In this document: piece after piece, positions 2,034 through 27,369 of the stretch
Layout: every line of letters starts with the position of its first letter
Position numbering within the stretch: position 1 is the stretch's first letter
Assembly (NCBI GenBank): GCA_964551995.1
Contig: CAZKFD010000011.1
Span: 43,374 to 107,373, forward strand
Source: an uncultured Eubacteriales bacterium
GTDB lineage: Bacteria > Acidobacteriota > Aminicenantia > Aminicenantales > Saccharicenantaceae
Direction of reading: 5' to 3'
DNA: 64,000 nt
Translations under genes and position numbers: made by a program
Notes under the pieces: generated by a model
Told to the model about the DNA's origin: nothing
What the model saw: only the letters and a program-made list of their open reading frames with translations
Databases searched by the model: none

Positions 2034-3512
2034 CTAGAACGGATTTTCAGTCGGGTAGAGCATCCCGACGGGCTGGTTGAATGAGAGGTCGCCGATCCCG
2101 AGCATGCGCATGGCTGCCCAGAAGGCCGCCCCGGCGTGACGGAAGGCGACGGCCGTATGGTGCGGGAATCGCTTCCCGATAAGCACGTGCCGGTAGAACC
2201 GCCCCATCTCCCGGATGCCGATGACGCCGATGCCGCCGAACGATTTCGGGTCGATGTCGAGGACTTCCCCCTCGGCGATGTACGACCTCAGGACCGTGTC
2301 GGCCGTCGATTGGAGCCGGAAGATCGTGACCTCGCCGGTCCGGATCCGGCCTTCGAGCGTGCCGCGGGTAATATCCGGCGCCTTGCCCGGTTCGATGAGC
2401 CGGTGCATGATGAACTGGTAGCTCATCTGCGGATTCAGCATGCACGGGGCGGGAGTGTTGCCGCAGTGGAAGCCCATGAAAAGGTCCGTCGGCTTGTAGG
2501 CGCCAACGGCCTTCTTCGCGGTCCGGATCATGTCCGCCGGGACAGTGTTGTTGATGTCCAGAAGGGTCGCCGGGAGCTCCGTCGCGCACGTGCATATGTA
2601 TTCGCTCAGGGCGCCGTAGATGTCGACTTCGCAGGCCACGGGGATGCCCCGCGAGGCCAGCCGCGAGTTGACATAGCACGGCACGAAGCCGAAGAAGGAT
2701 TCGAAGGCCGGCCAGCACTTGTCGGCGAAGACGCCGTATTCGGAGTCGCCCAGATTCTTCTCCATGAACTCGAGGAGCGCCACCTCGAACTGGGCCAGCT
2801 TGGGCAGGAGGTCCGGAAACGGGTTCCCGCCGCCGAGCTCACGGGCCATGTCCCGGGCGACGGACTTGATGGAGGGGCGGCCCTTCGCCTTGAGGAAGAT
2901 GTCGTAAAGGTCGAGCTCGCTGTTTTCCATGATCTCGACGCCGAGGTCATAGAGCGGCTTGATGGGCGCGTTGCAGGCCAGGAAATCCTGTGGCCGGGGC
3001 CCGAAGGAAAAGATCTTGAGCCGGGCCAGGCCGAGGAGAACGCGGGCGACGGGCACGAAGTCCCGGATCATCCCGGCGACTTCTTCGGCGGCCCCGACCG
3101 GGGACTCGGGGATGTGGGTCCGGAGCCTGCGGAGTCCGGCGTTGTAGGATGTGTTGAGCAGGCCGCAGTAGGCGTCGCCACGGCCGCCGACGAGGTCCTT
3201 TCCGCTCTCTTCGGCCGCGGCGGCGAACATCACCGGCCCGCCGAACTTCTGGGCCAGCAGGGTCGTCGGACCCTCGGGCCCGAAGTTGCCGAGGTAAACG
3301 ACGAGGGCGTTGACGCCCCGCGTCCGGATCTCCTCGAGGCCCGCCCGGGCGTCGATCTCGTTCTCCACGGTCGTCTTGATCTCCGTGACCGGGAGCCCGG
3401 CCCTGCGGCACTCGGCCACGACGCGGGCGCGCCGTTTGCGCGACAGATCGACCGGGAAGCAGTCGCGGCTGACGGCCACAATGCCGAGTCTGACATTCGG
3501 GATGTTCTTCAT
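2034..3512 (-). CDS. L-fucose/L-arabinose isomerase family protein (COG2407-like); likely the L-arabinose isomerase of this operon
   Basis: Start ATG at 3512..3510 is preceded by an AAGGAGAG RBS and overlaps the araD stop as ATGA. The protein reads MKNIPNVRLGIVAVSRDCFPVDL... (493 aa) and resembles FucI-like sugar isomerases. The 123-aa N-terminal extension in the track ORF is not coding. Confidence 0.8.
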   Translation of the reverse strand: MKNIPNVRLGIVAVSRDCFPVDLSRKRRARVVAECRRAGLPVTEIKTTVENEIDARAGLEEIRTRGVNALVVYLGNFGPEGPTTLLAQKFGGPVMFAAAAEESGKDLVGGRGDAYCGLLNTSYNAGLRRLRTHIPESPVGAAEEVAGMIRDFVPVARVLLGLARLKIFSFGPRPQDFLACNAPIKPLYDLGVEIMENSELDLYDIFLKAKGRPSIKSVARDMARELGGGNPFPDLLPKLAQFEVALLEFMEKNLGDSEYGVFADKCWPAFESFFGFVPCYVNSRLASRGIPVACEVDIYGALSEYICTCATELPATLLDINNTVPADMIRTAKKAVGAYKPTDLFMGFHCGNTPAPCMLNPQMSYQFIMHRLIEPGKAPDITRGTLEGRIRTGEVTIFRLQSTADTVLRSYIAEGEVLDIDPKSFGGIGVIGIREMGRFYRHVLIGKRFPHHTAVAFRHAGAAFWAAMRMLGIGDLSFNQPVGMLYPTENPF

Positions 3513-4213
3513 TGGGACTCTCCTTTTTTCTGACCGTAATAGGCGTGGGGGCCGTGTTTCCTCTGATAATGCTTTTCCAGCAGGTAATCCTCGAGGGGGG
3601 GCTGATCGCCGCGGATTGCGAGCGTGCCGAAGGCCATCTTGGCCACCCGCTCCAGGATAATGTTGACGCGGACGGCCTCGCCGGGCGTCCGGCCCCAGGT
3701 GAACGGCCCGTGGCCGGCGACGAGGACGGCCGGGATGACGAGCGGGCTGAGGCCCCGGAAGCGGTCCACGATGACCCGGCCCGTATTGAGCTCGTAGTTC
3801 CCGCCGACCTCGGACTCCGTCAGCTGACGCGTCATCGGGACCGGCCCGTGGAACAGGTCGGCGTGGGTCGTGCCCAGGCACGGAATTTCCTTGCGGGCCT
3901 GGGCGAACATCGTCGCGTACTCGCTGTGCGTGTGGGAGACGCCTCCGATCTCGGGGAAGGCCTTGTAGAGCTCGATGTGGGTCGGCGTATCCGAGGAGGG
4001 ATTGAGCCCTCCCTCGACGACCCGGCCTTCGAGGTCGACGAGGACCATGTCTTCGACCTTCATCTCGTCATAGGGCATGCCGCTCGGTTTGATGGCCAGG
4101 ATGCCCCGTTTGCGGTCCAGGCCGCTGACGTTCCCGAAGGTCAGGATGACGAGCCCGGCCCGGGTGAGCTCGAGGTTGGCCGTCCAGACGAATTCCTTGA
4201 GTTCGGCGAGCAT
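3509..4213 (-). CDS. araD: L-ribulose-5-phosphate 4-epimerase (class II aldolase/adducin family)
   Basis: 234 aa starting MLAELKEFVWTANLELTRAGLVILTFGNVSG... and containing the GVSHTHSEYA metal-binding His motif. ATG is at 4213..4211. The upstream part of track ORF 3509..5455 is antisense to araB. Confidence 0.9.
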   Translation of the reverse strand: MLAELKEFVWTANLELTRAGLVILTFGNVSGLDRKRGILAIKPSGMPYDEMKVEDMVLVDLEGRVVEGGLNPSSDTPTHIELYKAFPEIGGVSHTHSEYATMFAQARKEIPCLGTTHADLFHGPVPMTRQLTESEVGGNYELNTGRVIVDRFRGLSPLVIPAVLVAGHGPFTWGRTPGEAVRVNIILERVAKMAFGTLAIRGDQPPLEDYLLEKHYQRKHGPHAYYGQKKGESQ

Positions 4214-4215
4214 GC

Positions 4216-5913
4216 TCAACTCCTCAGCTGGCGGTCCCGGATCGCCAGGAGCTCCTTCATGACCGGGAAGAGATGGCCCGCCCACTCCCGCGTCCCGAAG
4301 GCGTCGTGGAGCTCGCGGTAGAGCCGGTAGAGCCGGACGTATATTTCGTGGCGCTCCGGAGACGGCCTGTACGTCTTCTTCTTGAATCCGGACATGGCGG
4401 CCTGGGCCTCGGCGAAGGTGTCGTGGCCGCCGCCGGCTCTTCGGGCCGCCACGGCCCCGGCCATGGCCGCGCCGAGGGCGCAGGTCTGCGCCGAGCGGGC
4501 GATCTTCATCTCGAGGCCGATGACGTCGGCGTAGATCTGCATGACGAGCGGGTTCTTCTCGGCGATCCCGCCGCAGTTGACGACCTCGCGGATCTCGACG
4601 CCGAACTCGCGGAACCTCTGGATGATGGTCAGGGCGCCGAAGGCCGTGGCCTCGATGAGGGCCCTGTAGATCTCCTCGGGCCTGGTGTGGAGCGTCAGGC
4701 CGAGGATGAGGCCGGTCAGGCGCTGATCGACCAGGACCGTCCGGTTCCCGTTGTGCCAGTCGAGGGCGAGGAGGCCCGACGCGCCGGGCCTGAGGGCCGC
4801 GGCCTTCCGGGTCAGGGCCTCGTGGGAGCCCTTTTTCGGTCCGCCCGGTTCGATCTCGTTGACGAACCAGTTGAAGATGTCTCCGACGGCCGATTGGCCG
4901 GCCTCGAGTCCCAGGTATCCCGGCAGGACGGACCCGTCGACGATGCCGCAGAGGCCGGGAATGTCCGGCAGCTTCTCGCCGGCGGGCCAAACGCAGATGT
5001 CGCAGGTGCTCGTGCCGACGATCTTGACGAAGCGGCCCGTATCCACCCCCGAGCCGACCCCGCCCAGGTGTGCGTCGAAGGCCCCGACCGCGACGGGGAT
5101 GCCGGGCCTCAGTCCGAGGGCCTTGGCCCACTCCCGCGTCAGGGCGCCGGCCGGGGTGTCCGACGTATAGGTCTTCTTGTACAGGCGGTCGCGGAGCTCG
5201 CCGAGCCTCGGGTCGAGCCGGACCAGGAACTCCCGCGCGGGCAGGCCTCCCCAGGCGTCGTTGAACATCGCCTTGTGGCCGGCCGCGCAGCGGCTCCGCT
5301 TCATGAGCAAAGGGTCGGTCGTCCCCGTCAGGACCGCGGGGAGATAATCGGCGCATTCGACCCAGGAAAACGCGGCCGCCGAAACCTTCGGGTCGACGTG
5401 CAGGGCGTGGCGGATCTTGCTCCAGAACCATTCCGAGGAATACGTCCCGCCGCACTTGGCCAGATATTCGGGATGCTCCTTCGCCGCCAGGGCCGTAATC
5501 TCGGCGGCTTCGGCGTGGCCCGTGTGGTCTTTCCAGAGCCAGGCCTGGGCGTTCGGGTTTTTCCGGAACTCCCGATAGAGGGCCAGCGGCTTTCCGACGC
5601 GGTCCACGGGGAGCGGCGTCGAGCCCGTGGTGTCGATGCCGATCCCGATGACGTCCGCGGGATCGAACGTCCGGCTCTTCTTCCGGACCAACAGGACCGC
5701 CTCCCTCACCGTCGACCGGATTCCCGCCAACCAGTCGGCGGGATTCTGGCGGGCCAGATTAGGGTCCTTGGGATCGAGGATGATGCCGGCATGCCCCGTC
5801 AGATAGTCGAAGATGGCGGTTCCGACCTCGTTCCCGTTCCGGATGTCGACGATGAGGGCCCGGACCGAATTGGTCCCGAAATCGAGGCCGATGGCGTACT
5901 TGGATTTTCCCAT
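4216..5913 (-). CDS. araB: ribulokinase (FGGY carbohydrate kinase)
   Basis: MGKSKYAIGLDFGTNSVRALIVD... carries FGGY N- and C-domain signatures. ATG at 5913..5911 has GGAAAGGAG upstream. The track's MPDM start at 5922 is a TTG. Confidence 0.9.
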   Translation of the reverse strand: MGKSKYAIGLDFGTNSVRALIVDIRNGNEVGTAIFDYLTGHAGIILDPKDPNLARQNPADWLAGIRSTVREAVLLVRKKSRTFDPADVIGIGIDTTGSTPLPVDRVGKPLALYREFRKNPNAQAWLWKDHTGHAEAAEITALAAKEHPEYLAKCGGTYSSEWFWSKIRHALHVDPKVSAAAFSWVECADYLPAVLTGTTDPLLMKRSRCAAGHKAMFNDAWGGLPAREFLVRLDPRLGELRDRLYKKTYTSDTPAGALTREWAKALGLRPGIPVAVGAFDAHLGGVGSGVDTGRFVKIVGTSTCDICVWPAGEKLPDIPGLCGIVDGSVLPGYLGLEAGQSAVGDIFNWFVNEIEPGGPKKGSHEALTRKAAALRPGASGLLALDWHNGNRTVLVDQRLTGLILGLTLHTRPEEIYRALIEATAFGALTIIQRFREFGVEIREVVNCGGIAEKNPLVMQIYADVIGLEMKIARSAQTCALGAAMAGAVAARRAGGGHDTFAEAQAAMSGFKKKTYRPSPERHEIYVRLYRLYRELHDAFGTREWAGHLFPVMKELLAIRDRQLRS

Positions 5914-6124
5914 ATCAGGCAACTTCCGCTCCTTTCCGGCGGCCGCGCCGCTCGGACCGCTTTCTTATTATATCCAGCCGGGTGGGGAGGGCAATACGGC
6001 CGGAAAATAATCCCCGGCACTTCGGCGGCACGATCGAGAGCACATCTCCATCAGTGCCCGTCATTTGCGTTTCAGATGATCAAGAAGTGACTTGAGTGAA
6101 AGGCGCGCCTGGACGTCCATTGTG

Positions 6125-6232
6125 GAAAAAAATTGCTTATTTTCGCGCTTCACTATGATATATAATATATCAGCCCTGCAATGCCATGATATTTTTCACT
6201 CTTTTAGGAGAAATCCCTGTTTCATTGGAGGT
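6125..6232 (+). promoter_or_regulatory. AT-rich divergent promoter/operator region between araB and the BNR-protein gene
   Basis: A locally AT-rich island sits in a GC-rich genome and carries TATAAT-like boxes (gatatataatatat). Half-sites repeat as TTCACT-ATGATAT ... ATGATAT-TTTTCACT. A GGAGG RBS lies at 6227..6231. Confidence 0.35.
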
Positions 6233-6235
6233 CCG

Positions 6236-8980
6236 ATGAAATTCCGTCTGTTCGCCAAAACGGTCCTTTGCCTTGCGATCGCCGGCGTCGTCGCCGGCTC
6301 CGCAGCTTTCGGCCAGGGGCCCTCGACCGAGGCGCTTCTGGAAAACCTGACGTTCAGGAACATCGGCCCCTTCCGCGCCGGTTCCTGGGTGACGAGTTTC
6401 GCCGTGCCCGAAGCGCCGGAGAGGGCACACCTCTACACGCTCTATGTGGGCACGCGCAACGGCGGCGTATGGAAGACGACGAACAACGGCGTCACGTTCG
6501 AGCCCGTCTTCGACGGCCAGCCAAAGCTCTCGATCGGGGCCGTCGCCGTGGCGCCGTCGGACGGGAACATCGTCTGGGTGGGGACCGGCGAGGCCTACTG
6601 CGCCCGGAGCTCCAACAGCGGTGACGGCGTTTACAAGTCCGTCGACGGGGGAAAGACCTGGACGAATATGGGGCTGCGCGATTCCCAGCACATCGCCCGG
6701 ATCGTCATCCATCCTAAAGACCCGGACATCGTCTATGTGGCCGCCATGGGGCACCTGTTCTCGACGAACGCCGAACGGGGCGTGTTCAAAACGGCCGACG
6801 GCGGCCGGACCTGGCGGAAGGTCCTGTACGTCGATGACAGGATCGGGGCGATCGACCTCGCCCTCGTCCGGTCCGAGCCGGAGACGCTCTACGCGGCCAT
6901 GTACGACAAGGTCCGGCTGCCCTGGACCTACGAGATCGGCGGCCCCGAAAGCGCCATCTACAAGACGACCGACGGCGGCCGGATCTGGGCCCGGCTCGGC
7001 GGAGGTCTGCCGAAGGGCCGCATCGGACGGATCGGCTTGGACGTCTATCAGAAGAACCCGAAGGTTCTCTGCGCCGTCGTCGAAAACGGCAATCCGAGGC
7101 CGGCGACCGCCCAGGAGGCCGAGCAGGACAGACGCCGCGGCGGAACGCCGTCGGCCCGGACGGTCGGTAACGAGGTCTACCGGAGCGACGACGCGGGCAA
7201 GACCTGGCGCAAGATCAACCCCGGACATGAAGGGGACCTGAACAAGGCGCCCTATTCCTTCAACCAGCTCCGCCTCGACCCGGCCGACCCGGACGCGGTC
7301 TACATCACCGGTCAGTCGCTCTACAGCACCAACGACGCCGGCAGGACCTGGAAGGGCGTCACTTGGCCCCCGGACGGTGTTTTCCAGAACGCCTTCGGAG
7401 ACTTCCGGGCCATGTGGATTGACCCCCAGGACCACGACCGGATGATCTTCGGTTCCGACGGCGGGGTCTACGTTTCCTATGACCGGGGCAAGACCTGCAT
7501 CCACCTTTACAACATCCCGCTGGGTGAATTCTACGCCGTGGGCGTCGACATGGAGGATCCCTACAACATCTACGGCGGCCTGCAGGACCACGAATCGTGG
7601 AAGGGGCCGTCGAACGGCTGGGCGAGGCAGATCTCGCTCGCCGACTGGGTCACGGTCGGCGAGGGCGACGGGATGTACAACGTCGTCGACCCGACCGACA
7701 GCCGCTGGGTCTACAACAACCGCGAGATGGGGACCATGTGGCGGTTCGACCAGAAACTCGGCGTGCAGACCGAGATCACGCCGAAGCGCGGGGCCGGCGA
7801 GAAGCCTTGGCGGTTCAACTGGACGCCGCCGATCGCCCTTTCGCCGCACAACCCGGCCATCGTCTACACAGGGGCCCAGGTCCTTTTCCGCTCCCTCGAC
7901 CGCGGAGACCACTGGCAGGGAATCAGCCCGGACCTGACTACTGATGACATTTCCAGGGAGCACGGCGAGGGGAACGTCACGTACTGCACGCTGACCACGA
8001 TCGCCGAGTCGCCCGTCCAGCCCGGGCTTATCTGGACCGGGTCGGACGACGGCAAGGTCCAGGTCACGAACAACGGCGGCGCCACCTGGCTGGACCGGAC
8101 GGCGGCGCTGGGCGCTGCGGGCGCGCCCGTGAACTTCTGGGTCAGCAGGGTTTTCCCCTCGCCCCACGCGGCTGGGACATGTTTCGTCGCCAAGACGGGC
8201 TGGCGGTTCGACGAATTTGAGCCCCTTCTCTATAAGACGACGGACTACGGTGAAACCTGGACGTCGATCGCCGGCGACCTGCCGGCGGGCAAGGCCGTCA
8301 ACGCCGTCGTCCAGGACCGCAAGAACCCCGGCCTGCTGTTCGTCGGCACCGAGCAAGGAGTGTACGCGACACTCGACGGCGGGACAAGCTGGCTGCCCTT
8401 CAAAAACAACATGCCCTGGGTCAAGGTCACGGATCTCCTCATCCACCCGCGGCAGAACGACCTCGTCGTCGCTTCCTACGGCCGCGGCCTGTGGATCACG
8501 GATATCTCGCCGCTCCAGGAGATGACCGCCGAGATGCGGGCCGAGGACGTCCATCTTTTCGATATCAGGCCGCAGACCGAGCGGGTTTACGGCGGCATCG
8601 GCAACTATCAACTCTTCGGCGACAGCCATCTCCTGAGGCCTGATGAGCCCGACGCGGTCGCCGTGCGCTATTATCTGAAAGCAAAGACCTCGAGCCCGGT
8701 GAAGGTCACGGTCGCCGACCCCTACGGCCTGGTCCTGGGCGAGCTCGAGGGCAAGGGCGATGCGGGACTCAACACGGTACTCTGGTTCATGCGTGTCCAG
8801 AGGCCTGGACAGCCGGAGGGCGAATTCGAGGGCTCTTACGGCGGCCGGCTCGTGGATCCGGGTGAATACGTAGTGACGCTCGACGTGGCCGGCAGGAAGC
8901 TCTCGAAAAAAGCCCTCATCCGCGGGCGCCAGGGCTGGACCGTCGGGCCGGTTCCGATCGAGATCAGGTCCTCGCGGTGA
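6236..8980 (+). CDS. secreted BNR/Asp-box repeat protein (sortilin/GH74-like beta-propeller)
   Basis: N-terminus MKFRLFAKTVLCLAIAGVVAGSAAFGQ is a signal peptide. About ten S/TxDxGxTW Asp-box motifs are present (SVDGGKTW, TADGGRTW, TTDGGRIW, SDDAGKTW, TNDAGRTW and others). GGAGGT RBS is 4 nt upstream of the ATG. Confidence 0.85.
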   Translation: MKFRLFAKTVLCLAIAGVVAGSAAFGQGPSTEALLENLTFRNIGPFRAGSWVTSFAVPEAPERAHLYTLYVGTRNGGVWKTTNNGVTFEPVFDGQPKLSIGAVAVAPSDGNIVWVGTGEAYCARSSNSGDGVYKSVDGGKTWTNMGLRDSQHIARIVIHPKDPDIVYVAAMGHLFSTNAERGVFKTADGGRTWRKVLYVDDRIGAIDLALVRSEPETLYAAMYDKVRLPWTYEIGGPESAIYKTTDGGRIWARLGGGLPKGRIGRIGLDVYQKNPKVLCAVVENGNPRPATAQEAEQDRRRGGTPSARTVGNEVYRSDDAGKTWRKINPGHEGDLNKAPYSFNQLRLDPADPDAVYITGQSLYSTNDAGRTWKGVTWPPDGVFQNAFGDFRAMWIDPQDHDRMIFGSDGGVYVSYDRGKTCIHLYNIPLGEFYAVGVDMEDPYNIYGGLQDHESWKGPSNGWARQISLADWVTVGEGDGMYNVVDPTDSRWVYNNREMGTMWRFDQKLGVQTEITPKRGAGEKPWRFNWTPPIALSPHNPAIVYTGAQVLFRSLDRGDHWQGISPDLTTDDISREHGEGNVTYCTLTTIAESPVQPGLIWTGSDDGKVQVTNNGGATWLDRTAALGAAGAPVNFWVSRVFPSPHAAGTCFVAKTGWRFDEFEPLLYKTTDYGETWTSIAGDLPAGKAVNAVVQDRKNPGLLFVGTEQGVYATLDGGTSWLPFKNNMPWVKVTDLLIHPRQNDLVVASYGRGLWITDISPLQEMTAEMRAEDVHLFDIRPQTERVYGGIGNYQLFGDSHLLRPDEPDAVAVRYYLKAKTSSPVKVTVADPYGLVLGELEGKGDAGLNTVLWFMRVQRPGQPEGEFEGSYGGRLVDPGEYVVTLDVAGRKLSKKALIRGRQGWTVGPVPIEIRSSR

Positions 8981-8994
8981 GAGGAAGGGCGCCG

Positions 8995-11511
8995 ATGAAC
9001 CGCCGCTCAAGGGCCGGGATCGTCGTCTTCGCTTTGGTGCTTCTGTTTTCCCAGAGCTGCGTCCGGCGGGCGCCGAAAGCCGATTACCCTGTGAAGCCGG
9101 TGCCCTTCACGGACGTCCATCTCACCGATTCATTCTGGGCGCCGCGGCTCGAGACGAACCGGACGGTTACGATCCCCCATATCCTCAAGGAGGAAGAGGA
9201 CACCGGCCGGGTCAGGAATTTCGACCTGGCTCGGGAAGCGATTGCGGGCGAAACGAGCCTCAAGTTCTGCACGAGCTATCCGTTCGACGATTCCGACGTC
9301 TACAAGACGATCGAAGCTGCGTCCTACGCGATGGCTGTCCGCCCGGACCCCGGGCTCGACAAGTTTGTCGACGGGCTCATCGCCAAGATCGCCGCGGCCC
9401 AGGAGAAGGACGGATACCTCTACACCATCCGGACGATCGGCGGCCCCCCGCCCGTCGATTGGATGGGGAAGGAGCGGTGGTCTCACCTCTACATGAGCCA
9501 CGAGCTGTATAACCTTGGGCACCTCTTTGAGGCCGCCGTCGCGCACTACGAGGCCACGGGGAAAAAGACCCTCCTCGACGTCGCCCTGAAGAGCGCCGAT
9601 CTTGTCTGCCGGGAATTCGGTCCCGGCAAGCAGACAAACCCGCCGGGCCACGAAGAGATCGAGATCGGCCTGGTCAAGCTCTACCGGGCTACGGGGAGGA
9701 CCAAGTACCTCGACATGGCCCGTTTCTTCATCGACGCGCGGGGCAAGACCGAAGGCCGGGTCCCGTACCGCGGCAACAACGGCGAGCCGCTTCTCCTGTA
9801 CGGCGAGTATTCTCAGGACCACAAGCCCTTCGTCGAGCAGGACACGGCCGTCGGGCACGCCGTCCGAGCCGGGTACCTTTATGCGGGCGCGGCCGACGTC
9901 GCGGCCCTCACGGGGGACCGGGACTACGTCGTCGCCCTCGACAAGATCTGGGACGATGTCGTCGGCGCGAAGATCTACCTGACCGGCGGCATCGGGGCGG
10001 CGGGAGCCTGGGAGGGCTACGGCCCCCCTTATCGCCTCCCCAACGCCACGGCCTACGCCGAGACCTGCGCCAATATCGCCACGTTCCTCTGGAACTCGCG
10101 AATGTTCCGGCTGGAGGAGGACGCGAAGTACGTCGATGTCATGGAGCGCATCCTCTATAACGGCATCCTCTCCGGGCTCTCGCTCTCCGGCGACCGCTTC
10201 TTTTATTCGAATCCGTTGGCCTCTTTCGGCCAGCACGAGCGCGTGCCCTGGTTCGGCTGCGCTTGCTGCCCGCCGAACGCAGCCCGGATCCTGGCCTCCG
10301 TGCCCGGCTACGTCTATGCCGCGGATGCGGGCAAGGTCTATGTAAACCTCTTCGCTCAGGGGACGGCGCAGATCGCCGCCGGCGGGACGAGAGTCGAAAT
10401 CGCGCAGTCCACCGAATACCCGTGGAAGGGGAATATTCGTATCGACGTCCGGCCGGCGAAGCCGGTCGCGTTCGCCCTATGCGTCCGCATCCCCGGCTGG
10501 TCCCTTGGACGGCCCATCCCCTACGATCTCTACCGGTACGCGGACGAAAGCGCCGGTCTGGCGGGGGGAGAGAAGGGTCAGGGCGGGGAGACCGTCCCGG
10601 CGCCCGTCCTGAAGGAGATCGAAATGCCCATGGTCAAGGTCGACGGCCAGGCGGTCGACCTCAACCTCGATAAGGGATACGTCGTCCTGCGCCGGACCTG
10701 GCAGGCGGGCGATACCGTTGAGGTCAGTCTTCCGATGCCCGTCCGCCGCGTGGCGGCCAACGATAAGGTCGAGGCCGACCGCGGGCGGATCGCCGTCGAG
10801 CGCGGGCCGCTCGTCTACTGCGCGGAGGCCGTGGACAACGGCGGCCGCGTCTCGAACTTCGTCCTTCCTGACGGCGTTCCGCTCGCCGCCGCGATGCGTC
10901 CCGACCTTCTGGGCGGGGTCGTCTCGATCACGGGCGAGGCCGAAGCCCTGAGCGAGAAGGGCGGAGGGATCACCGCCGAAAAAAAGGCCGTCACCCTGAT
11001 TCCGTACTACGCCTGGGCCAACCGCGGGAAAGGGGAGATGGAGGTCTGGATCGCCCGCGAGCCCGCCAAAGCTCGGGTTGCGGCGGAGCCCGGGCTCGCC
11101 GCCCGGGCGATTGTCACCGCCTCCGAAGGAGCCAAAGGCATCAAGGGCGTCAACGACCAATATGAACCGGAAGCGTCCGACGACCCCGTCGGCTATATGC
11201 ACTGGTGGCCGAAGAAAGGCACGACGGAATGGGTCGAGTACGCCTTCCCGGAGCCCGTCCGCGTATCCCGGACGGCGGTCTACTGGTTTGACGACACGGG
11301 CGGCGGCGAATGCCGCGTGCCCGCGTCCTGGCGACTGCTCTACAAATCCGGCGGCAAATGGCTGCCCGTCGCCAACGCCCGTCCTTACGGGGTGGCCAAA
11401 GATGCCTGGAACACGGTGACCTTCGCCCCGGTCAGGACGACCGCCCTCCGGCTCGAAGTCGAGATGCAGAAAGAATGGTCCGCCGGCATCCATGAGTGGA
11501 AGCTCAGATAA
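8995..11511 (+). CDS. GH127 beta-L-arabinofuranosidase (DUF1680, HypBA1-like), secreted/lipoprotein
   Basis: MNRRSRAGIVVFALVLLFSQSC is a signal peptide. The conserved Cys-rich active-site motif WFGCACCPPN is present, along with GH127 N-terminal blocks (YPVKPVPFTDVHLTDSFW, SHELYNLGHLFEAA). GAGGAAG RBS. Confidence 0.9.
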   Translation: MNRRSRAGIVVFALVLLFSQSCVRRAPKADYPVKPVPFTDVHLTDSFWAPRLETNRTVTIPHILKEEEDTGRVRNFDLAREAIAGETSLKFCTSYPFDDSDVYKTIEAASYAMAVRPDPGLDKFVDGLIAKIAAAQEKDGYLYTIRTIGGPPPVDWMGKERWSHLYMSHELYNLGHLFEAAVAHYEATGKKTLLDVALKSADLVCREFGPGKQTNPPGHEEIEIGLVKLYRATGRTKYLDMARFFIDARGKTEGRVPYRGNNGEPLLLYGEYSQDHKPFVEQDTAVGHAVRAGYLYAGAADVAALTGDRDYVVALDKIWDDVVGAKIYLTGGIGAAGAWEGYGPPYRLPNATAYAETCANIATFLWNSRMFRLEEDAKYVDVMERILYNGILSGLSLSGDRFFYSNPLASFGQHERVPWFGCACCPPNAARILASVPGYVYAADAGKVYVNLFAQGTAQIAAGGTRVEIAQSTEYPWKGNIRIDVRPAKPVAFALCVRIPGWSLGRPIPYDLYRYADESAGLAGGEKGQGGETVPAPVLKEIEMPMVKVDGQAVDLNLDKGYVVLRRTWQAGDTVEVSLPMPVRRVAANDKVEADRGRIAVERGPLVYCAEAVDNGGRVSNFVLPDGVPLAAAMRPDLLGGVVSITGEAEALSEKGGGITAEKKAVTLIPYYAWANRGKGEMEVWIAREPAKARVAAEPGLAARAIVTASEGAKGIKGVNDQYEPEASDDPVGYMHWWPKKGTTEWVEYAFPEPVRVSRTAVYWFDDTGGGECRVPASWRLLYKSGGKWLPVANARPYGVAKDAWNTVTFAPVRTTALRLEVEMQKEWSAGIHEWKLR

Positions 11512-11516
11512 CCCGG

Positions 11517-20132: not shown

Positions 20133-22214
20133 ATGCCGCTCGTCAATAAGCTGGCCGGGGCGGCCGCTCTCGGCCTCGGAGTCGCCGCCGCGACCCTTCT
20201 CGCGCTCGCCGGAGGCGGACGCTCCCGGAGCTCGATGCCTCGGCTTCCCAGGGATTATCCCATCCGCCCGGTGGCCTTCACCGATGTCGGGATCACGGAC
20301 GCCTTCTGGGCGCCCCGGCTGGAGACGGACCGGACCGTTTCGGTCCCTTACGCCCTTCGGATGAACGAGGAAACGGGCCGTGTCGACAATTTCCGCAAGG
20401 CCGCCCGCCTGATAAGCGGGCCCTACACGGGCAAGCGCTACAACGACTCCGACGTCTATAAGGCGATGGAGGGCGCCGCGTACACGCTTATGCTCCATCC
20501 CGACCCGGCCCTCAAGAAGACCCTGGATGATCTCGTCGCCATCATCGCCAAGGCCCAGGAGCCGGACGGCTATCTCTACACGACGCGGACGATCGATCCC
20601 GCGCATCCCGCGCCCGGCGCCGGCTTGGAACGGTGGTCGAACCTCCGGGTCAGCCACGAGCTCTATAACGTCGGCCACATGTACGAGGCGGCCGTCGCCC
20701 ATTATCTCGCGACCGGCGAGCGCTCGTTCCTGGATATAGCCCTCAAGAACGCCGACCTCCTGGTCAGGACCTTCGGCCGCGGCCCGGGCCAGCGGCGGGG
20801 CTTCCCCGGCCACGAGGAGGTCGAAATCGGGCTGTCCAAGCTCTACCGGGTCACCGGCAACGAGGCCTATCTCACTCTGGCCAAATTCTTCCTCGACGAG
20901 CGGGGCCACTATTTCGGCGGTGAGAAGCACGGGCCGAACGACCCCTTCGCGGTCTACGATTCCGACGAATATCTGCAGAACCACAAGCCGGTGCTCGAGC
21001 AGGACGAGGCTGTGGGCCATGCCGTCCGCGCGATGTATCTCTATTCCGGCATGGCCGATGTCGCCGCTCTCGGCGGATATCCCGAATACGCCGCCGCCAT
21101 CGACCGGCTTTGGGAGAATGTCGTCGGCCGGAAGATGTACCTGACCGGCGGCGTGGGCTCGCGCGGCGAGATCGAGGGCTTCGGTCCGGACTGGGACCTG
21201 CCGAACAACGGTTACGCCGAGACCTGCGCGGCGGTGGGCAACGCCCTTTGGAACCATCGCTTGTTCCTGCTTCACGGCGAAGCGAAATACATCGACGTCA
21301 TGGAGCGGGTCATCTACAACGGCCTGCTCTCCGGCGTCTCGCTCCGCGGCGACCGGTTCTTCTATCAGAATCCGCTCGAATCGGCGGGCGGCTACGGCCG
21401 CAGTTCCTGGTTCGAGGTCGCCTGCTGCCCTGCGAACATCAACCGCTTCCTGCCGTCTCTGCCCGGGTACATCTACGCGGCGAAAGGCGATACGGTCTTC
21501 GTCAACCTCTTCGCAGGGAGCACGGCCCGGGTCGATGTCAACGGGCGGACAGTCGTGTTGACCCAAGAGACCCGCTATCCCTGGAATGGGGCTGTCAGGA
21601 TCGCGGTCAGCCCGGAAGGGGGCGGGGCCGGTTTCGAGATCGCGGTGCGCATTCCCGGCTGGGCGCGAAACGAGGCGGTTCCCGGCTCCCTCTACCGGTT
21701 CCTGGACCGGAACGATGCCAGGCCGAAGCTCCTCGTCAACGGCCAATCCGTCGGCCTGGCTCCCTCGTCCGGATACGCCCGGATCCGGCGGGACTGGAAG
21801 GCCGGCGATGTCATCGAACTTTCTCTCCCCATGCCCGTGCGGCGGGTCGTGGCGGACGAGCGCGTCAAGGCCGACTCCGGGCTGGTGGCTCTCGAGCGGG
21901 GCCCCATCGTTTTCTGCGCCGAGGCCGTGGATAACGGCGGCGACGTCTTCGACCTCGTGCTTCCCGACGCGGCCGAGCTTCAGTCCGTTTTCCGCTCCGA
22001 CCTGCTCAACGGCGTCGTCATTGTCACGGCGCAGGCCATAGGTTCGGTCAGGGGGAAAGACGGCTCGGTCCAGGACAGGACAGTGAAATTCCAGGCCGTG
22101 CCCTACTACGCGTGGGCGAACCGCGGCGCGGACCAGATGTCCGTCTGGCTGGCCCGGACCAAGGGCGCGATCAAGCCCCGCGAGGGCCGCGGAAGGATCG
22201 GTCCCATTTACTGA
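20133..22214 (+). CDS. GH127 beta-L-arabinofuranosidase paralog 2, secreted
   Basis: GGAGG RBS; MPLVNKLAGAAALGLGVAAATLLALA is a signal peptide. YPIRPVAFTDVGITDAFW and WFEVACCPANINRF Cys motif. About 45% identical by eye to the 8995..11511 protein. Confidence 0.9.
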   Translation: MPLVNKLAGAAALGLGVAAATLLALAGGGRSRSSMPRLPRDYPIRPVAFTDVGITDAFWAPRLETDRTVSVPYALRMNEETGRVDNFRKAARLISGPYTGKRYNDSDVYKAMEGAAYTLMLHPDPALKKTLDDLVAIIAKAQEPDGYLYTTRTIDPAHPAPGAGLERWSNLRVSHELYNVGHMYEAAVAHYLATGERSFLDIALKNADLLVRTFGRGPGQRRGFPGHEEVEIGLSKLYRVTGNEAYLTLAKFFLDERGHYFGGEKHGPNDPFAVYDSDEYLQNHKPVLEQDEAVGHAVRAMYLYSGMADVAALGGYPEYAAAIDRLWENVVGRKMYLTGGVGSRGEIEGFGPDWDLPNNGYAETCAAVGNALWNHRLFLLHGEAKYIDVMERVIYNGLLSGVSLRGDRFFYQNPLESAGGYGRSSWFEVACCPANINRFLPSLPGYIYAAKGDTVFVNLFAGSTARVDVNGRTVVLTQETRYPWNGAVRIAVSPEGGGAGFEIAVRIPGWARNEAVPGSLYRFLDRNDARPKLLVNGQSVGLAPSSGYARIRRDWKAGDVIELSLPMPVRRVVADERVKADSGLVALERGPIVFCAEAVDNGGDVFDLVLPDAAELQSVFRSDLLNGVVIVTAQAIGSVRGKDGSVQDRTVKFQAVPYYAWANRGADQMSVWLARTKGAIKPREGRGRIGPIY

Positions 22215-22254
22215 CGGCGGCGGCCGGCCCGCCGTCGGCCCGCCGGGTTGCTCG

Positions 22255-24221
22255 TCAATCTCTTTCCCGATGCTGGGGCGGCTTGGCCAGCTCCCAGTAG
22301 ATCGAGTACCTCTGGCCGAAGAGCTTGTAAAAAGGAATGAGAGTGACGTCGTAGGGCTTTCCGGCGTTCACGGTTTGGAAGGTCAGCGGCTTCCCGGGGA
22401 CGGGCTTGATCCATTTTTCCAGGGGGACCTCGTCATGCCTCTCGAACGAAGGCACGGGCACGGGGTTGCCCTCCGGTCCGTACTGGCCGTAAACCTTGTC
22501 CCGGGTCAGCGCCTCGCCTCCGCCCAGCTCGCCCGCCAGGACGATCGGCCCGTAAAGGATGGCCGCGATGTCCCGCCGGTCGGGAAGTCGCTCGAGGTGG
22601 AGCGACATGGGCAGTGAGACCTCGACCCGGTCTCCGTTTTTCCAGACGCGGTCGACGGTAAGATAGCTCGACGGGCTTGAGAACTGGGCGAGTCTCTGGC
22701 CGTTGGCTTTCACGAAGCCGCCCTCCGCGATCCATTCGGGGATCCGGATGCGGAGCGCCAAGCGGACAGGTTTCGCCGCTGAGAACACGAGCGTCGTCCC
22801 AGGCTCCTCGGGGAACCGAGTCTCTTGGCGGACCTTGAGGCCCTTCTCCGTCCAGTTGAGCTCGGAGGCAATGAAGAGGTTGACGAAGAGCCCGTCCGCG
22901 TCGTGAAAATAGATGCTGTCGCCGTACTTGGCGTGGTTCTCCATGCCCGTCCCCGTGCAGCACCAGAACGAATCGTACGGGCTCATGAAGGTCCTGTACA
23001 TGCCCGGCATCATGGGGACGTAATACATCATCATGCCGTCCTCCGGATTTTGGGAGGAAAGAATCCCGTTCCACAGGGCCCGCTCGTAGAAGTCGGCGTA
23101 CCTCGCGGAGGCCTCCCAGCTGAAAAGGTGCCGGGTGAGCTTCAGCATGTTGTATGTGCAGCAGGACTCGTGGCTGTCCTTGCCGAGCTCGCCGAACATC
23201 TGAAACGGGCCGGCTTCCCAATGCTCGTTGTTGCTCGTCCCGCCCGTGGCGAAGCTCCGGGCTCCCGCGACCTCGTTCCAGAAGAACTCCGCGCTCCCGC
23301 GGAGGACGGGGTCGCCGGTCATCTCGTATTCGCGCGCCGCGCCGATCACGTTGGGAATGAAGGAGTTGGCATGCTCGCCCTCGAGCTTGTCCACGGAGTG
23401 CGCGAGCGGCTCGGTGTAATGCCTCTCGTCGAAGCGGCGGGCCGTGGCCAGGTATTCGGGGTTGCCGGTGATCGAGTAGAGATTCGACAGGACCTCGTTC
23501 ATTCCGCCCTGCTCGGTGAAGTCGAGCACGCGCTCCATGTGGACCGCGTCGGACTTCGCCGTGAACGATTTGACCCAGCGGGCCATGCCCTCGACGATCT
23601 CCAGGGCCTGGCTGTTCCCGCAGTATTCGTACATGTCGGTGAGGCCGGCCATGATCTTGTGGATCGTATAGAAGGGCGCCCAGACCGTGCGGATCGAGTC
23701 GACGCGGTCGAAGAAGGTCTCCGGGAAGGCGCTCAGGTAGCCGCTCGGGCCGAGGGCCTTCTGGCACTTGGCGAGCTCAGCGACGACGGCGTCCGCCTTG
23801 GCCCTGACTTTTTCATCGCCCGTCGCCGCGTACATGAGCGCGGACGCGGACAGGAAGTGGCCGGTCGTATGGCCCCGCAGCTCGACGTCCGGCCTCTCCC
23901 AGCCCCCGTAGGCCTCAGCCGGCGCCGGCAGACCGGCCGTGACGCGGAACATATGGAGGAGGCGGTCTGATTCAAGGCTCATCATATATTTGAGGTCACG
24001 CTCCATGGCCTGCCGGAACGGGCCTCGAGCAGCCGGACATCCTTCAGGTTGAAGGGGTAGGCACGGATCCCGGCCTTGGGCGCGACCGAGATCTCCGGAA
24101 ACATCGTGTCGTTCAGGGCCGCCCGGTGCCGGGACGGCCCCGTCGCGCCGACGGCCACAACCGGCGACAGCACGGAGAGAACTGCCGCCGCGATTGTGAG
24201 CATGTGGCTTCTTTTTCTCAT
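22255..24221 (-). pseudogene. GH127 (DUF1680) paralog 3 interrupted by a single-nucleotide frameshift (pseudogene or sequencing error)
   Basis: The N-terminal exon (24221 down to 23982, MRKRSHMLTIAAAVLSVLSPVVAVGATG...YPFNLKDVRLLEA) ends at a stop. The main body (24006 down to 22255, ...PFRQAMERDLKYMMSLESDRLLHMFRV... with CCTGTG Cys motifs) continues in the +1 frame. The two frames join at the GAGGCCCG run near 24019..24025. RBS GAGGGAG lies before the ATG at 24221. Confidence 0.7.
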
Positions 24222-24486
24222 GGATTCTCCCTCGTTCAATGAAATCGGGAATAACCTAGCACCCGGGAGCGGGAGCGTCAAGCGAAGCCAGGCGAGGCCC
24301 GCAGGATTCTCCCCCGGCCCGGTGCTGCGCGGGCTTCCGCCTCTTTTGTGGATTCCGGTTTGTGCCGGATCGCGGATTCCCGCAAGGGAAAACCGGGCTC
24401 GACCTCCCGCCGGTTGCTTTTCCGGGGCCTTCGGACTAATCTTCCTTATGGCCTTTAGCGGGGCCGCCCCGCGGAAAGCAAGCACG

Positions 24487-27369
24487 ATGAAGGAGGCGCC
24501 GGTGAGCCAGCGCGGACTGGTCCGTCTGATTCTGGGGATGTTCGGCATCCTGGCCGTGTCCGTCCTTTCGGGCGCCCGCCCGCCGCAGGAGAACGCCCCG
24601 GCGCTCGTGAACGAGAACCTCAGGGCGGATTTCAACGACCACGGCCTCGTCTCCCTCACGGGCGTCAGGACGAACCGGAAAATCGTTCTCTCCGGCGATC
24701 CCTCCGCCGTGACCGTCGACGGGGCGAGGCTGGAGATCTCGAGCCTCGGCCTGGCCGAAATGGAGATCAAACCGTCCCGTCTGACCTATCGCTACGTCAA
24801 GGACCCCTATACGATCGAAGTCGTCTATGAGCTCCGGCCGGGCTGGGGGTTCCTGAGCAAGCAGATCGTGCTGTCCTCGGCCGCGGGTGCGGCCTTCCAT
24901 GTCAGCGAGGTCTCGGAGCTCGAGACCTCGCTCGATGTCCCGGTCCTCGACGAGCTCAGGATCGCCGAGGGGAAATGGGGCTCCTTCTGCCGTTTCAACG
25001 CCGGCGGGTCGGCCGCGGCTCCCCCCGTCTGGGGGGCTTTTTTTGTCCTTCAGAACCCGTTCATGGTCTGGAAGAGGGACGGCCGGAACATCTCCGCCTC
25101 CTATGCCCCGGACATGGACTGGAGTCCGGACGACGGGCCTTTCGCCGCCGACCGCCTCTGCGTCGGGATGTACGAGCTCAGCGGGGTCCGGTTTCCGGCC
25201 AAGGCCGTCCCCGAATGGAAGTACGTCCCGGACTACGACCGGCTCCTCCGCGAGGTCCCGACGATCGACCTCAACGAGGTCGATGCGCTGTCCGACTGCG
25301 TTCGCTCCTTCTTGCTCTATTTTCCCGGCCGGACGCGCGTCCATATCCCCTGGTGCGAGAACGACTACCAGATCGACGTCGGGACCCCGGAAGGCGTCGA
25401 GGAGTACAAGCGGATCATGGACCGGGCGGCGGAGCTCGGCTGCCGAGACGTCCTTTATACGCCGGCCAACAGCGGGCTTTCCCGCGTCGAGGACAACGCG
25501 GACGCCTGGGGGTGGGAGAACGTCCTTTGGTTCGGGCTTGGCCAGAAGATCCGTCTGGGCGAGTGGGATCCTGACCGGGACGATGTCCCCGACGGAATCA
25601 AGGCGATGCTGGACTACGCGGCTACCAGGGGGCTCAAGCTCATGGGCTACGCCTATCCGTCCCTGCCGTTCCTCCAGAACCCGGCGTGGACGAAATGGGC
25701 CGGGACCAAGGTTGGGGGATACACGGGTGCCGACACCGGGCTCCGCAGCTTCCAGGACTGGTGGCTCGAGAAGCTCCTGTCCTTCGCCCGCAAGACCGGC
25801 GCGGGCGGGTTTTCCTTCGATCACTGGTGGATCGCCTACGACAACGCCTCCAGCAAGTACGCGCAATGGTTCGGCTGCCGCCGCATCCTGGAAACCCTGC
25901 GTCGGGAGCTCCCGGATATCGTCATCGACGGACGGCAGCAGTATCAGAACTTCGGCCCCTGGACCTGGCTCGCGGGCTCCTATCCCCACCCGACGCTGAC
26001 CGACGAACAGCCGGAAAGCTTCACCGCCTTTCCCGATCTCCACACGGACAGGGTCTCGGCCGACCGGCAGAGGTTCGCCGCCTGGACCTACCGGGTGGAG
26101 CGCTTCGCCCCGCCGGAGATCGTGCCGGGCTTCATCACCCACCAGTCGGAGAGGTCCGACGAAAAGGGCGTGATGCGCCGCGACCGGTTCCGGCCGCGCG
26201 ACTGTGATTATCTGGGCTGGAAATACTCGGTCCTGTCCTCGGTCGGAACGGCCCCGTTCAACCACGTCGTCAACTTCATCCCGGCCCGCGACCCCGAGGA
26301 ATTCAAGGCTTTCTCGGATGAGGATAAGGCTTGGTTCCGCCGCTGGCTCGACTGGACCGACGAGAACCGGCGGTTCCTGCATGCGCTGCGGCCCATTATC
26401 GGCCCTCCCATGATTGGCCGGGCCGACGGCACCGCGGCGATCGTCGAGGACCGCGGCTTTATTTTCCTCTTCAATCCCAACCCCGGCCCGGTCGAGGCCC
26501 GTTTCCGGCTGGACGGCTCGATCGGTCTCACGAAGGGCGACCGATTCATCATCCGGGAGATCCACCCCGAGGAGGGGCGGTTCGTCGGCTCGCCCGAGGG
26601 CTTCTGGAAAGCCGGCAGCGAGGTCGCCGTCCCGATGTCCGGGGCGGACGCCCGGGTCTTCGAGATCTTCCCCGCCCCGGCCGAGCTCGGTGAAGCCGTG
26701 CTCTTCAACGTCGCCGGCTCGGCGGCGCTCAGGGACGGGCGGCTTGTACTCAGCATCACGGGCGAGACCGGGACCGTCCGTGACGGCCTGATCCTTCTGC
26801 CGGCGGGCGCGAGGGTCCGCGCCATGTCCGTAAACGGCGTGCCCTATCCGTTCAGGCAGGAAGGAGCGCTCGTCCCCTTCACGACGCGGTTTGCCGGCCG
26901 GGCCTTCGGGCGGCTCGAGCGCGCGGGAACGGCCGATCCGGCCTTCGCCGGCGGGACCTTCAAGGCGAAATTCTCGGTCCCCGGCAGGGTTTTCAGGCAG
27001 CTTGCCGAGCGGAAAAAGGAATGGCCCGTGACCTATACGGAAGACGATCTCCGGGCGCCCTGGCTCGGCCCCTGGCGGCTTCTCCTGTTTATTGCGGTCG
27101 CCGAGCCGGCCGAATCCATGGACGTCGCCGTGAGGATCGACGGCCGGCCCGTCACGGTCATGAGGGCATACAACAGCGTTTACCCGCATTCGTCCGAGCG
27201 GACCTTCCTGGGGAGCTACGTCGACCTGTCCGCTCTCCAGCCGGACCGGGCCTACGAGATCGAGGTGGCCCTGCCGCCCCTCGCGCCCGGCCGCTTCATG
27301 GGCCTGTTCTTCGAGAACGTCGAGCCGGAATTCAGCCAGGCGATCCTCGCCCCCCGTCCCCTCCGCTGA
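24487..27369 (+). CDS. large secreted hypothetical protein, putative TIM-barrel glycoside-hydrolase-like enzyme (family not identified)
   Basis: 960 aa from the ATG at 24487 (MKEAPVSQRGLVRLILGMFGILAVSVLSG is a signal peptide). The central region (WCENDYQIDVG...GFSFDHWWIAYD...) looks like a glycosidase TIM barrel. The 137-aa upstream extension in the track overlaps the GH127 pseudogene on the antisense strand. Confidence 0.7.
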   Translation: MKEAPVSQRGLVRLILGMFGILAVSVLSGARPPQENAPALVNENLRADFNDHGLVSLTGVRTNRKIVLSGDPSAVTVDGARLEISSLGLAEMEIKPSRLTYRYVKDPYTIEVVYELRPGWGFLSKQIVLSSAAGAAFHVSEVSELETSLDVPVLDELRIAEGKWGSFCRFNAGGSAAAPPVWGAFFVLQNPFMVWKRDGRNISASYAPDMDWSPDDGPFAADRLCVGMYELSGVRFPAKAVPEWKYVPDYDRLLREVPTIDLNEVDALSDCVRSFLLYFPGRTRVHIPWCENDYQIDVGTPEGVEEYKRIMDRAAELGCRDVLYTPANSGLSRVEDNADAWGWENVLWFGLGQKIRLGEWDPDRDDVPDGIKAMLDYAATRGLKLMGYAYPSLPFLQNPAWTKWAGTKVGGYTGADTGLRSFQDWWLEKLLSFARKTGAGGFSFDHWWIAYDNASSKYAQWFGCRRILETLRRELPDIVIDGRQQYQNFGPWTWLAGSYPHPTLTDEQPESFTAFPDLHTDRVSADRQRFAAWTYRVERFAPPEIVPGFITHQSERSDEKGVMRRDRFRPRDCDYLGWKYSVLSSVGTAPFNHVVNFIPARDPEEFKAFSDEDKAWFRRWLDWTDENRRFLHALRPIIGPPMIGRADGTAAIVEDRGFIFLFNPNPGPVEARFRLDGSIGLTKGDRFIIREIHPEEGRFVGSPEGFWKAGSEVAVPMSGADARVFEIFPAPAELGEAVLFNVAGSAALRDGRLVLSITGETGTVRDGLILLPAGARVRAMSVNGVPYPFRQEGALVPFTTRFAGRAFGRLERAGTADPAFAGGTFKAKFSVPGRVFRQLAERKKEWPVTYTEDDLRAPWLGPWRLLLFIAVAEPAESMDVAVRIDGRPVTVMRAYNSVYPHSSERTFLGSYVDLSALQPDRAYEIEVALPPLAPGRFMGLFFENVEPEFSQAILAPRPLR

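Follow-up and report, generated by a model that had tools for sequence, protein, structure and literature searches.

A two-module L-arabinoside utilization region of uncultured Aminicenantes and its candidate new glycoside hydrolase family

Introduction

Among the described systems closest to the region analyzed here is the published BAD_1528 cluster, in which a β-L-arabinofuranosidase of glycoside hydrolase (GH) family 127 adjoins an enzyme of GH36 architecture and in which a GH51 gene is also found. The same kinds of neighbours are met in the window, the whole 64-kb stretch of DNA (65% G+C) that was analyzed, from contig CAZKFD010000011.1 of an uncultured Aminicenantes bacterium (Acidobacteriota). 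Its L-arabinoside genes, and with them an exported 960-residue protein of GH36/GH27-like predicted architecture, called here X960, are the subject of this work. The closest solved relatives of its two GH127 proteins and of its GH146 protein are enzymes from polysaccharide utilization loci (PULs) of Bacteroides thetaiotaomicron, namely BT3674 (GH127; structure 6EX6, which we take to be this protein) and BT0349 (GH146; 5OPJ), and the arabinogalactan/pectin PUL set of that organism includes in addition a GH97 β-L-arabinopyranosidase (5XFM). BT0349 acts on arabinan oligosaccharides and belongs to a rhamnogalacturonan I (RG-I) PUL, while in HypBA1 the residues Glu338, Cys340, Cys417 and Cys418 form the zinc site and Glu322 is the acid/base (PMC10850190).

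As a whole the locus is ordinary, an L-arabinoside/L-arabinose utilization region of an uncultured member of the Acidobacteriota built from known families. Its two conserved modules probably act jointly in the extracytoplasmic release of L-arabinose from plant-type glycans and in its subsequent catabolism. The locus is of value mainly as a picture of how uncultured members of the Aminicenantes may live on glycans of plant origin. Three components, judged by sequence comparison, lack membership of the families that they resemble: X960 with respect to GH36/GH27, an exported BNR-repeat protein with respect to GH74 and a sugar isomerase with respect to AraA. With somewhat less than even confidence, X960 is proposed to be the first recognizable member of an unclassified GH family, a deeply diverged offshoot of the GH36/GH27 (clan GH-D) fold that uncaps β-L-arabinofuranosyl (β-L-Araf) glycans together with GH127/GH146, the FucI-like isomerase and the GH74-like propeller protein being further non-canonical components of the system in uncultured anaerobic bacteria of soil and sediment. 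The interest of X960 lies in a large family known by hypothetical proteins only, a confident glycosidase-like fold, invariant acidic residues and a repeated linkage to β-L-arabinofuranosidases; the locus also hints at an L-arabinose isomerase that is non-orthologous and at a tie between a GH74-like protein and arabinose use.

The predicted arabinofuranosidases

Raw open reading frame (ORF) lists of the window are full of shadow ORFs, and gene frames were chosen by codon-position (third-position) GC and then checked by family searches. The calls match independent calls on L084, an assembly encoding an identical BNR protein and the same surrounding genes, and a reading of the frames as chance ORFs was rejected on the strong third-position GC bias and the family matches for all genes.

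Three PF07944 (DUF1680) genes are packed into 15.2 kb, a pattern for which chance is ruled out. An earlier note on this DNA had taken them for three GH127 paralogues; every gene that it named was recovered at its position and in its predicted family, with the exception of the third of these. GH127a (8995-11511, plus strand, 838 residues) matched PF07944, PF20736 and PF20737 with 369, 71 and 95 bits, and GH127b (20133-22214, plus strand, 693 residues) matched the same three domain models with 344, 78 and 88 bits. The two proteins scored 674 and 689 bits against the solved GH127 structure 6EX6 and 481 and 544 bits against 4QJY, and merely 34-52 bits against the GH146 structure 5OPJ, which places both in GH127 as the note had predicted. 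The third gene (22255-24221, minus strand, with its main ORF at 22255-24006; 385 bits to PF07944) gave 388 bits to BT0349, the founder of GH146, 226 bits to 8K7Y and no more than 92 bits with any GH127, and on these scores it is assigned to GH146, not to GH127.

The Cys-rich active-site motifs pointed out by the note are present in all three proteins, as WFGCACCPPN in GH127a, WFEVACCPANIN in GH127b and SFWCCTGTG in the GH146 gene, and they align with the zinc ligands of HypBA1. A residue-by-residue alignment of GH127b with 3WRE paired Glu322 with the Glu of EIEGF, Glu338/Cys340 with ETC and Cys417/Cys418 with CC (HypBA1 numbering). The WEG, AETC and GCACCPPN stretches of GH127a fall in the columns of these equivalents, and the GH146 gene has HESC and WCC motifs; all three DUF1680 proteins conserve the acid/base Glu and the ligands of the Cys3-Glu zinc site. 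GH127a and GH127b are presumably β-L-arabinofuranosidases. Aceric acid hydrolase, reportedly the activity of the GH127 member BT1003, which is said not to be a β-L-arabinofuranosidase, was considered for GH127a and GH127b and rejected, the NCBIfam model giving 474 and 426 bits, far under its cutoff of 950.

The N-terminus of GH127a (...VVFALVLLFSQSC) has a lipobox-type end (...LLFSQSC), and the protein is a probable lipoprotein or is secreted, while GH127b has a Sec signal peptide. GH127a also carries an additional C-terminal domain of about 150 residues (10990-11511), absent from GH127b and with no Pfam match, that looks like a β-sandwich or discoidin-like binding module. In the GH146 gene a frameshift of 1 nt at about 24024 leaves some 66 codons at the 5' end, with the typical signal peptide (MRKRSHMLTIAAAVLSVLSPVVAVGA...), in a separate frame; the upstream frame runs to ...DVRLLE, the remainder (GPFRQAMERD...) is in the other frame, and base 24024 is common to both. 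Since seven GH146 orthologues (L004-L011; 75-82% identity) read uninterrupted through the junction (...VRLLDGPFKQAMERD...), one G is missing from the short G run of the window (GAGG/CCC), either by an assembly error or in a very recent pseudogene.

The predicted α-L-arabinofuranosidase is a GH51 lipoprotein of 802 residues (12489-14897, plus strand), for which the family proposed by the note was borne out by 65 bits to Alpha-L-AF_C and 264-266 bits to the GH51 structures 3S2C and 3UG3 over the catalytic region. It has the lipobox LVLGGC and an N-terminal extension of about 380 residues that includes a stretch resembling a carbohydrate-binding module (CBM). Export is wider than the two secreted or lipid-anchored enzymes that the note had counted, as signal peptides or lipoboxes occur on at least six proteins: GH51, GH127a, GH127b, X960, the BNR protein and the upstream frame of GH146, the last four with leaders of Sec type.

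The X960 family

X960 is encoded at 24487-27369 on the plus strand and begins with a Sec-type signal peptide. Its AlphaFold2 model (mean predicted local distance difference test, pLDDT, 78.5; predicted template modelling score, pTM, 0.82) comprises an N-terminal β-sandwich (residues 39-240), a (β/α)8-like barrel (about 280-630) and C-terminal β-sandwiches, the clan-type order of domains. Foldseek returned GH101 and GH36 structures at E values of 1e-15 to 1e-13 with about 10% identity; the best structural matches were GH36 and GH27, not GH31, although GH31 and GH97 folds were matched too. The predicted fold of X960 is hence clan GH-D-like, with no sequence-level membership of any family, and the label of a GH-like protein of unassigned family that it had been given earlier was correct.

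Conservation is highest in the barrel, where many Asp, Glu, Trp and Tyr residues are invariant. Among 23 sequences from several phyla the invariant acidic residues include D293, D297, D339, E344, D445, D481, D506 and E507, and D445 (FSFDHWW) stands directly after the predicted strand 441-444. Families of the GH36, GH27, GH31, GH97 and GH101 type cleave axial (α-D or β-L) pyranosides; they are all retaining except for some GH97 members, and the nucleophile comes after strand β4 in each of these families. D445, predicted to stand at the end of barrel strand 4, is likely the nucleophile of X960, and D481, D506 and E507 are candidates for the acid/base. A long insertion (484-530), extremely conserved, follows barrel strand 5; it may serve as a lid over the active site or as an interface between subunits of an oligomer.

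At least 870 homologues were found, and all those that bear a name are called 'hypothetical protein'. At a threshold of E≤1e-3 a profile search of 1.84 billion representatives gave 1,531 clusters, while E≤1e-30 left 390; the family amounts to some 1,500 clusters at 50% identity. The best 80 species-representative genomes with X960 are all metagenome-assembled genomes (MAGs), with homologues of 44-75% identity over the full length; they are labelled as Aminicenantes and other Acidobacteriota, Armatimonadota, Verrucomicrobiota and Planctomycetota, with single bins labelled Lentisphaeraceae and Porphyromonadaceae. The MAGs were obtained from peat, lakes, sediment, groundwater and digesters. An exact-sequence index has no entry for a protein identical to X960, and tblastn found no X960 in plasmids. 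Longer members of the family add Laminin_G_3, DUF1349, PAN, Big_3_5, PATR or CarboxypepD_reg modules, as carbohydrate-active enzymes of the cell surface typically do.

In most long Aminicenantes loci a GH127 gene lies directly 5' of X960, a subset having GH146 in between or the GH127 gene a few kb away. Beyond these, a distant set of 27 loci (at most 59% identity) was surveyed, with neighbours called by the codon-position GC filter and one pooled Pfam scan, and arabinose-related genes were found within about 6 kb of X960 in seven of them. An uncultured bacterium (L050) has the order GH51, X960, GH127, GH146; a GH127 gene is found in a member of the Opitutia (L060) and, adjacent to X960, in one of the Armatimonadota (L061), another of which (L064) encodes a protein grouped with the PF07944 genes in BLAST clustering; araB-araD is adjacent in one of the Acidobacteriota (L069) and GH146 in one of the Planctomycetota (L074), and in a member of the Vicinamibacterales (L082) an adjacent GH146 is accompanied by araB and araD. 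PF07944 is among the most recurrent families in 90 Pfam-scanned neighbours, beside Laminin_G_3 and URO-D. Because of its fold, its invariant acidic residues and this repeated linkage to β-L-arabinofuranosidases, X960 is a good candidate for a new CAZy family. Judged from the Pfam, NCBIfam and PDB searches, its standing as a candidate new GH family is credible and well supported; a literature search for a newly founded GH family matching X960 returned nothing relevant.

The predicted catabolic operon and the propeller protein

The note had also described an araB-araD-isomerase operon, and the three genes are confirmed on the minus strand. araB (ribulokinase, 4216-5922) matches FGGY_N and FGGY_C and scores 660 bits with NF003154 (cutoff 428) and 590.5 bits with TIGR01234 (cutoff 583.25). 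araD (L-ribulose-5-phosphate 4-epimerase, 3509-4213, 234 residues) was initially masked by a shadow ORF and is real, with 161 bits to Aldolase_II and 337 bits to NF006047 (cutoff 257); with the equivalog model TIGR00760 it has 314.7 bits, under the cutoff of 389. Start and stop codons of the three genes abut or overlap, the ATG of the isomerase at 3512 overlapping the stop of araD, and the same gene order is seen in the relatives L085 and L086; the three would form one operon.

The isomerase (2034-3512, 492 residues) is where the locus departs from the expected set. Its sole Pfam match is Fucose_iso_C, with 77 bits, and its best NCBIfam match, a weak one of 55.8 bits, is to the sulfoquinovose isomerase model NF048012, which has a cutoff of 700; there was no PDB sequence match at E≤0.01 and no AraA domain model was matched. 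By these comparisons the protein is FucI-like and not a canonical AraA. It has at least 8,000 homologues at E≤1e-10, of which those named by their sources are only 'L-fucose isomerase-like' or 'fucose isomerase'. Because the AraB and AraD of the operon are genuine and translation of the gene is coupled to that of araD, it is read as an L-arabinose isomerase, and in the simplest reading it would be a non-orthologous one, presumed from its operon position. A literature search for a described non-orthologous L-arabinose isomerase gave nothing relevant.

The divergent intergenic region between araB and the BNR gene contains a perfect 17-bp palindrome, TGATATATAATATATCA, at 6156-6172, present as a single copy in the window where none is expected by chance. 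It occupies the same position in L086 (9919-9937) and, with three base changes, in L085. Since it is conserved between flanks that have diverged, the palindrome is a candidate operator. When five promoter regions were searched for an operator in common, nothing emerged beyond GC-rich 9-mers of the kind expected by chance, and this palindrome alone stood out.

The BNR protein (6236-8980, plus strand, 914 residues, exported) matches Sortilin-Vps10 with 106 bits, and sequence searches give BNR-repeat and Sortilin-Vps10 matches only; phmmer found no PDB match at E≤0.01 and the profile search only local matches at the level of the BNR repeat. Its AlphaFold2 model (pLDDT 71), a GH74-like double propeller consistent with the β-propeller reported before, was matched by Foldseek to more than 20 GH74 chains at E 1e-27, with template modelling (TM) scores of 0.63-0.65 and 15-17% identity over about 840 columns. 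The protein is GH74-like in modelled fold only, that of tandem seven-bladed propellers, with no sequence-level membership of GH74. In the relatives L084, L085 and L086 it always stands between araB and GH127, and because this position is fixed the protein may act on, or bind, the glycan that supplies the arabinosylated fragments.

Organization of the region

The region had been presented as a single locus. It is an arabinoside utilization region, but two separately conserved modules, A (2034-15780) and B (19175-29283), make it up rather than one operon, and they are divided by housekeeping-type genes at 11517-12113 and 15809-19960. In module A the isomerase-araD-araB genes diverge from BNR-GH127a, after which come a DEDD exonuclease gene (11517-12113, minus strand) and GH51. 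The order isomerase-araD-araB / BNR-GH127 ... GH51 is kept in L084, L085 and L086, one or two GH127 genes following the BNR protein in the last two. In module B a TauE/SafE-family permease gene (19175-19960, minus strand; PF01925, 149 bits) diverges from GH127b, which is followed by X960 and a regulator with GntR and FCD domains (27500-28186, plus strand). The arrangement recurs in most long Aminicenantes loci; the permease is divergently paired and syntenic with GH127b in nearly all of them, and the GntR regulator comes directly after X960 or within a few kb of it in most of the long ones. In a subset of loci, the window and L004, L006, L009-L011, L019 and L020, GH127b and X960 are separated by the GH146 gene, which is read from the other strand. 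RND efflux genes, and not module A, come before module B in L002 and L003, and the juxtaposition of three paralogues in 15 kb is therefore specific to this lineage.

The long ORF of the permease as listed (19175-20146) overlaps the start of GH127b, and the true start is likely at 19960. Between the modules lie genes for a peptidyl-prolyl isomerase (15809-16831), a phosphoribosyltransferase (17418-18020) and a BsuPI inhibitor (18625-19134), all on the minus strand. An Amidohydro_2 gene (14935-15780, plus strand; PF04909, 62.6 bits) begins 38 nt 3' of GH51 on the same strand and has the same position in L084; the Amidohydro_2 family includes sugar lactonases, and this one is possibly an accessory gene of the locus. 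A URO-D/MtaA-like gene (28225-29283, plus strand; PF01208, 62.9 bits) ends module B, and URO-D-like genes are also present within about 1.5 kb of X960 homologues in L038, L041, L058 and L081; speculatively, it may be linked functionally to the system, for example in the handling of methylated sugars. An ORF of 424 codons (470-1744) has good coding statistics and no Pfam or NCBIfam match, and its acidic DDLEDVEED motif recalls prenyl/terpene synthases. The remaining genes of the window include two-component systems, RND efflux genes and glycosyltransferases.

Discussion

The proposal that these modules probably serve the release and catabolism of L-arabinose can be put as a sequence of steps. 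The palindrome-bearing divergent promoter of module A would drive araB-araD-isomerase in one direction and the propeller protein with GH127a in the other. Outside the cytoplasm, GH51 would remove α-L-arabinofuranose, and GH127 and GH146 would remove β-L-arabinofuranose by means of a zinc-bound cysteine nucleophile. X960 would act as a retaining glycosidase of GH36/GH27-like architecture that takes off an axially linked pyranose cap, most likely β-L-arabinopyranose or α-D-galactose, and this removal would open access to the β-L-arabinofuranosyl glycans for GH127/GH146. Free L-arabinose would be imported by a transporter not picked up in the Pfam scans of the window and then converted to L-ribulose by the FucI-like isomerase, to L-ribulose-5-phosphate by AraB and to D-xylulose-5-phosphate by AraD. 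Our best guess for X960 is a retaining enzyme of the β-L-arabinopyranosidase/α-galactosidase type; that its substrate is β-L-arabinopyranose in particular is a guess that may well prove wrong. The nearest characterized relatives of the enzymes point to arabinogalactan and pectic arabinan side chains as the glycan. A literature search for a study of GH127 in Aminicenantes gave nothing relevant.

Several observations weigh against this proposal. X960 has no relevant Pfam match at E≤10, the lone listing being a spurious CBM_10 with an E value of 4.3, and no NCBIfam match; neither as a single sequence nor as a 33-sequence profile does it match any PDB sequence at E≤10. A sequence link to GH31 was tried and rejected, since hhalign gave a probability of 2% against E. 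coli YicI; the single stretch that it aligned, EWDP...GLK...P, falls in the barrel region as expected but is not significant and was not used. The catalytic residues of X960 are placed by predicted secondary structure, and residues 481-530 (GRQQYQNFGPWTWLAGSYPHPTLTDEQPESF...), the most conserved stretch of the protein, have a pLDDT below 50. The substrate of the isomerase is read from operon position in a protein that is no AraA, the GH146 copy may be a pseudogene, and Pfam scans of the genes called across the 64-kb window recognized no sugar transporter and no TonB-dependent receptor. The synteny among Aminicenantes may in part reflect shared ancestry and not selection, 20 of the 27 distant loci have no arabinose-related neighbour, and the neighbours that these loci do have are heterogeneous (Laminin_G_3, DUF6055, GFO/IDH/MocA, GH42, GH43). 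What the analysis shows are the family assignments, the export signals and catalytic motifs, the modelled fold of X960 and the conservation of the gene neighbourhoods; all substrates, the grouping into operons, the part played by the isomerase and both the activity and the catalytic residue of X960 are inferred.

An alternative glycan is that of hydroxyproline-rich glycoproteins such as extensins, which the earlier note had favoured. GH127 and GH146 would then strip β-L-Araf from hydroxyproline (Hyp), X960 would act as an α-galactosidase on Gal-α-Ser, and proline-specific peptidases would digest the Pro/Hyp-rich backbone. Such peptidases are within reach: a DPP-IV (S9) gene lies at 29924-32200 on the plus strand, and 3-10 kb 3' of X960 in many Aminicenantes loci, a further S9 (prolyl-oligopeptidase-like) peptidase at 48160-50292, and an S15 X-Pro dipeptidyl peptidase in L084 (461-2338) just upstream of the equivalent of the window. 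This peptidase linkage, however, is confined to one lineage. The GH36/GH27-like fold of X960 would suit α-galactosidase chemistry, and some GH146 enzymes, Bll4HypBA1 and XeHypBA1, do cleave Araf-β1-Hyp (PMC10850190), whereas the closest characterized DUF1680 relatives of the window act on arabinogalactan (BT3674) and on arabinan/RG-I oligosaccharides (BT0349), and Pfam scans of the window detected neither a GH121 β-L-arabinobiosidase nor a GH43 HypAA-type enzyme. The emphasis on extensins thus lacks specific support, and we regard this target as unlikely.

It is somewhat less probable again that X960 has nothing to do with arabinose or, instead of hydrolysing anything, works on an unrelated glycan as a binding protein, a transglycosylase or a phosphorylase, its adjacency to GH127 being inherited synteny. 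The 20 distant loci just mentioned would fit such a view, as would the uniformly hypothetical annotation of the named relatives and the fact that no catalytic motif can be aligned to a known family. Against it, adjacency to GH127, GH146 or araBD recurs across several other phyla, far above the ~0.1 occurrences expected in about 100 neighbours if PF07944 makes up ~0.1% of a genome (a rough estimate); the barrel is full of invariant Asp, Glu, Trp and Tyr, as is typical of active glycosidases, and the family has export signals and lectin-like fusions. Arabinosylated xyloglucan, whose backbone a GH74-like protein would cut while GH51/GH127 removed the α-/β-L-Araf of S/T side chains and X960 served as a GH31-like α-xylosidase, is a most improbable target: the GH74-like fold of the BNR protein, the matches of X960 to GH31 and GH97 folds, GH95 genes a few genes downstream of X960 in the relatives L001 and L002 and the β-L-Araf contained in the T side chain of solanaceous xyloglucan speak for it, but the BNR protein falls outside GH74 at the level of sequence and gave no usable residue-level alignment to a GH74 on which the catalytic Asp pair could be mapped, no β-glucosidase, β-galactosidase or xylose-catabolic genes were detected in the window, and the top structural matches of X960 are GH36/GH27, not GH31. 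Joint release of L-arabinose from plant-type glycans by the two modules is the reading that we prefer.

Comparison with known systems

Considered component by component, the BNR protein shares with the GH74 xyloglucanases (6MGJ, 2CN3, 4LGN) the modelled tandem seven-bladed propellers and the BNR/Asp-box repeats; it differs from them in its low identity, in giving no global phmmer or hmmsearch match and in an additional C-terminal domain of about 130 residues. X960 was compared with clan GH-D and its relatives, that is GH36 (AgaA, 4FNP), GH27 (rice α-galactosidase, 1UAS; Abp, 4NX0), GH31, GH97, GH101 and GH129. With about 10% identity and no match to a hidden Markov model or profile, it is set apart from them by the conserved insertion after strand β5 and by two or three additional C-terminal β-sandwich domains. 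The catabolic genes resemble the canonical araBAD of E. coli, Bacillus and Geobacillus in that AraB and AraD score as members and in their three-gene layout with overlapping start and stop codons, but the isomerase slot holds a FucI-like protein with Fucose_iso_C only in place of AraA.

As in the B. thetaiotaomicron PULs, the enzymes of the window carry export signals, keep the Cys3-Glu zinc site and would be directed at plant arabinogalactan and arabinan side chains. A PUL of the Bacteroidota type was nevertheless rejected, since Pfam scans of the 64-kb window gave no SusC/SusD-like pair, and no hybrid two-component regulator accompanies the genes either. GH127a differs from BT3674 in its added C-terminal domain, and the GH146 protein, with 583 residues against the 802 of BT0349, is without the full C-terminal region of the latter and is frameshifted. 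From the BAD_1528 cluster the region differs in that its enzymes are exported, in a diderm bacterium, whereas BAD_1528 is intracellular, that X960 has no sequence-level membership of GH36/GH27, that isomerase, regulator and propeller protein are of other kinds and that the cluster of the window is without transporter genes. What the two would have in common, with a GH127 enzyme beside one of GH36-like architecture and a GH51 enzyme near them, is the logic of removing every type of L-arabinose cap.

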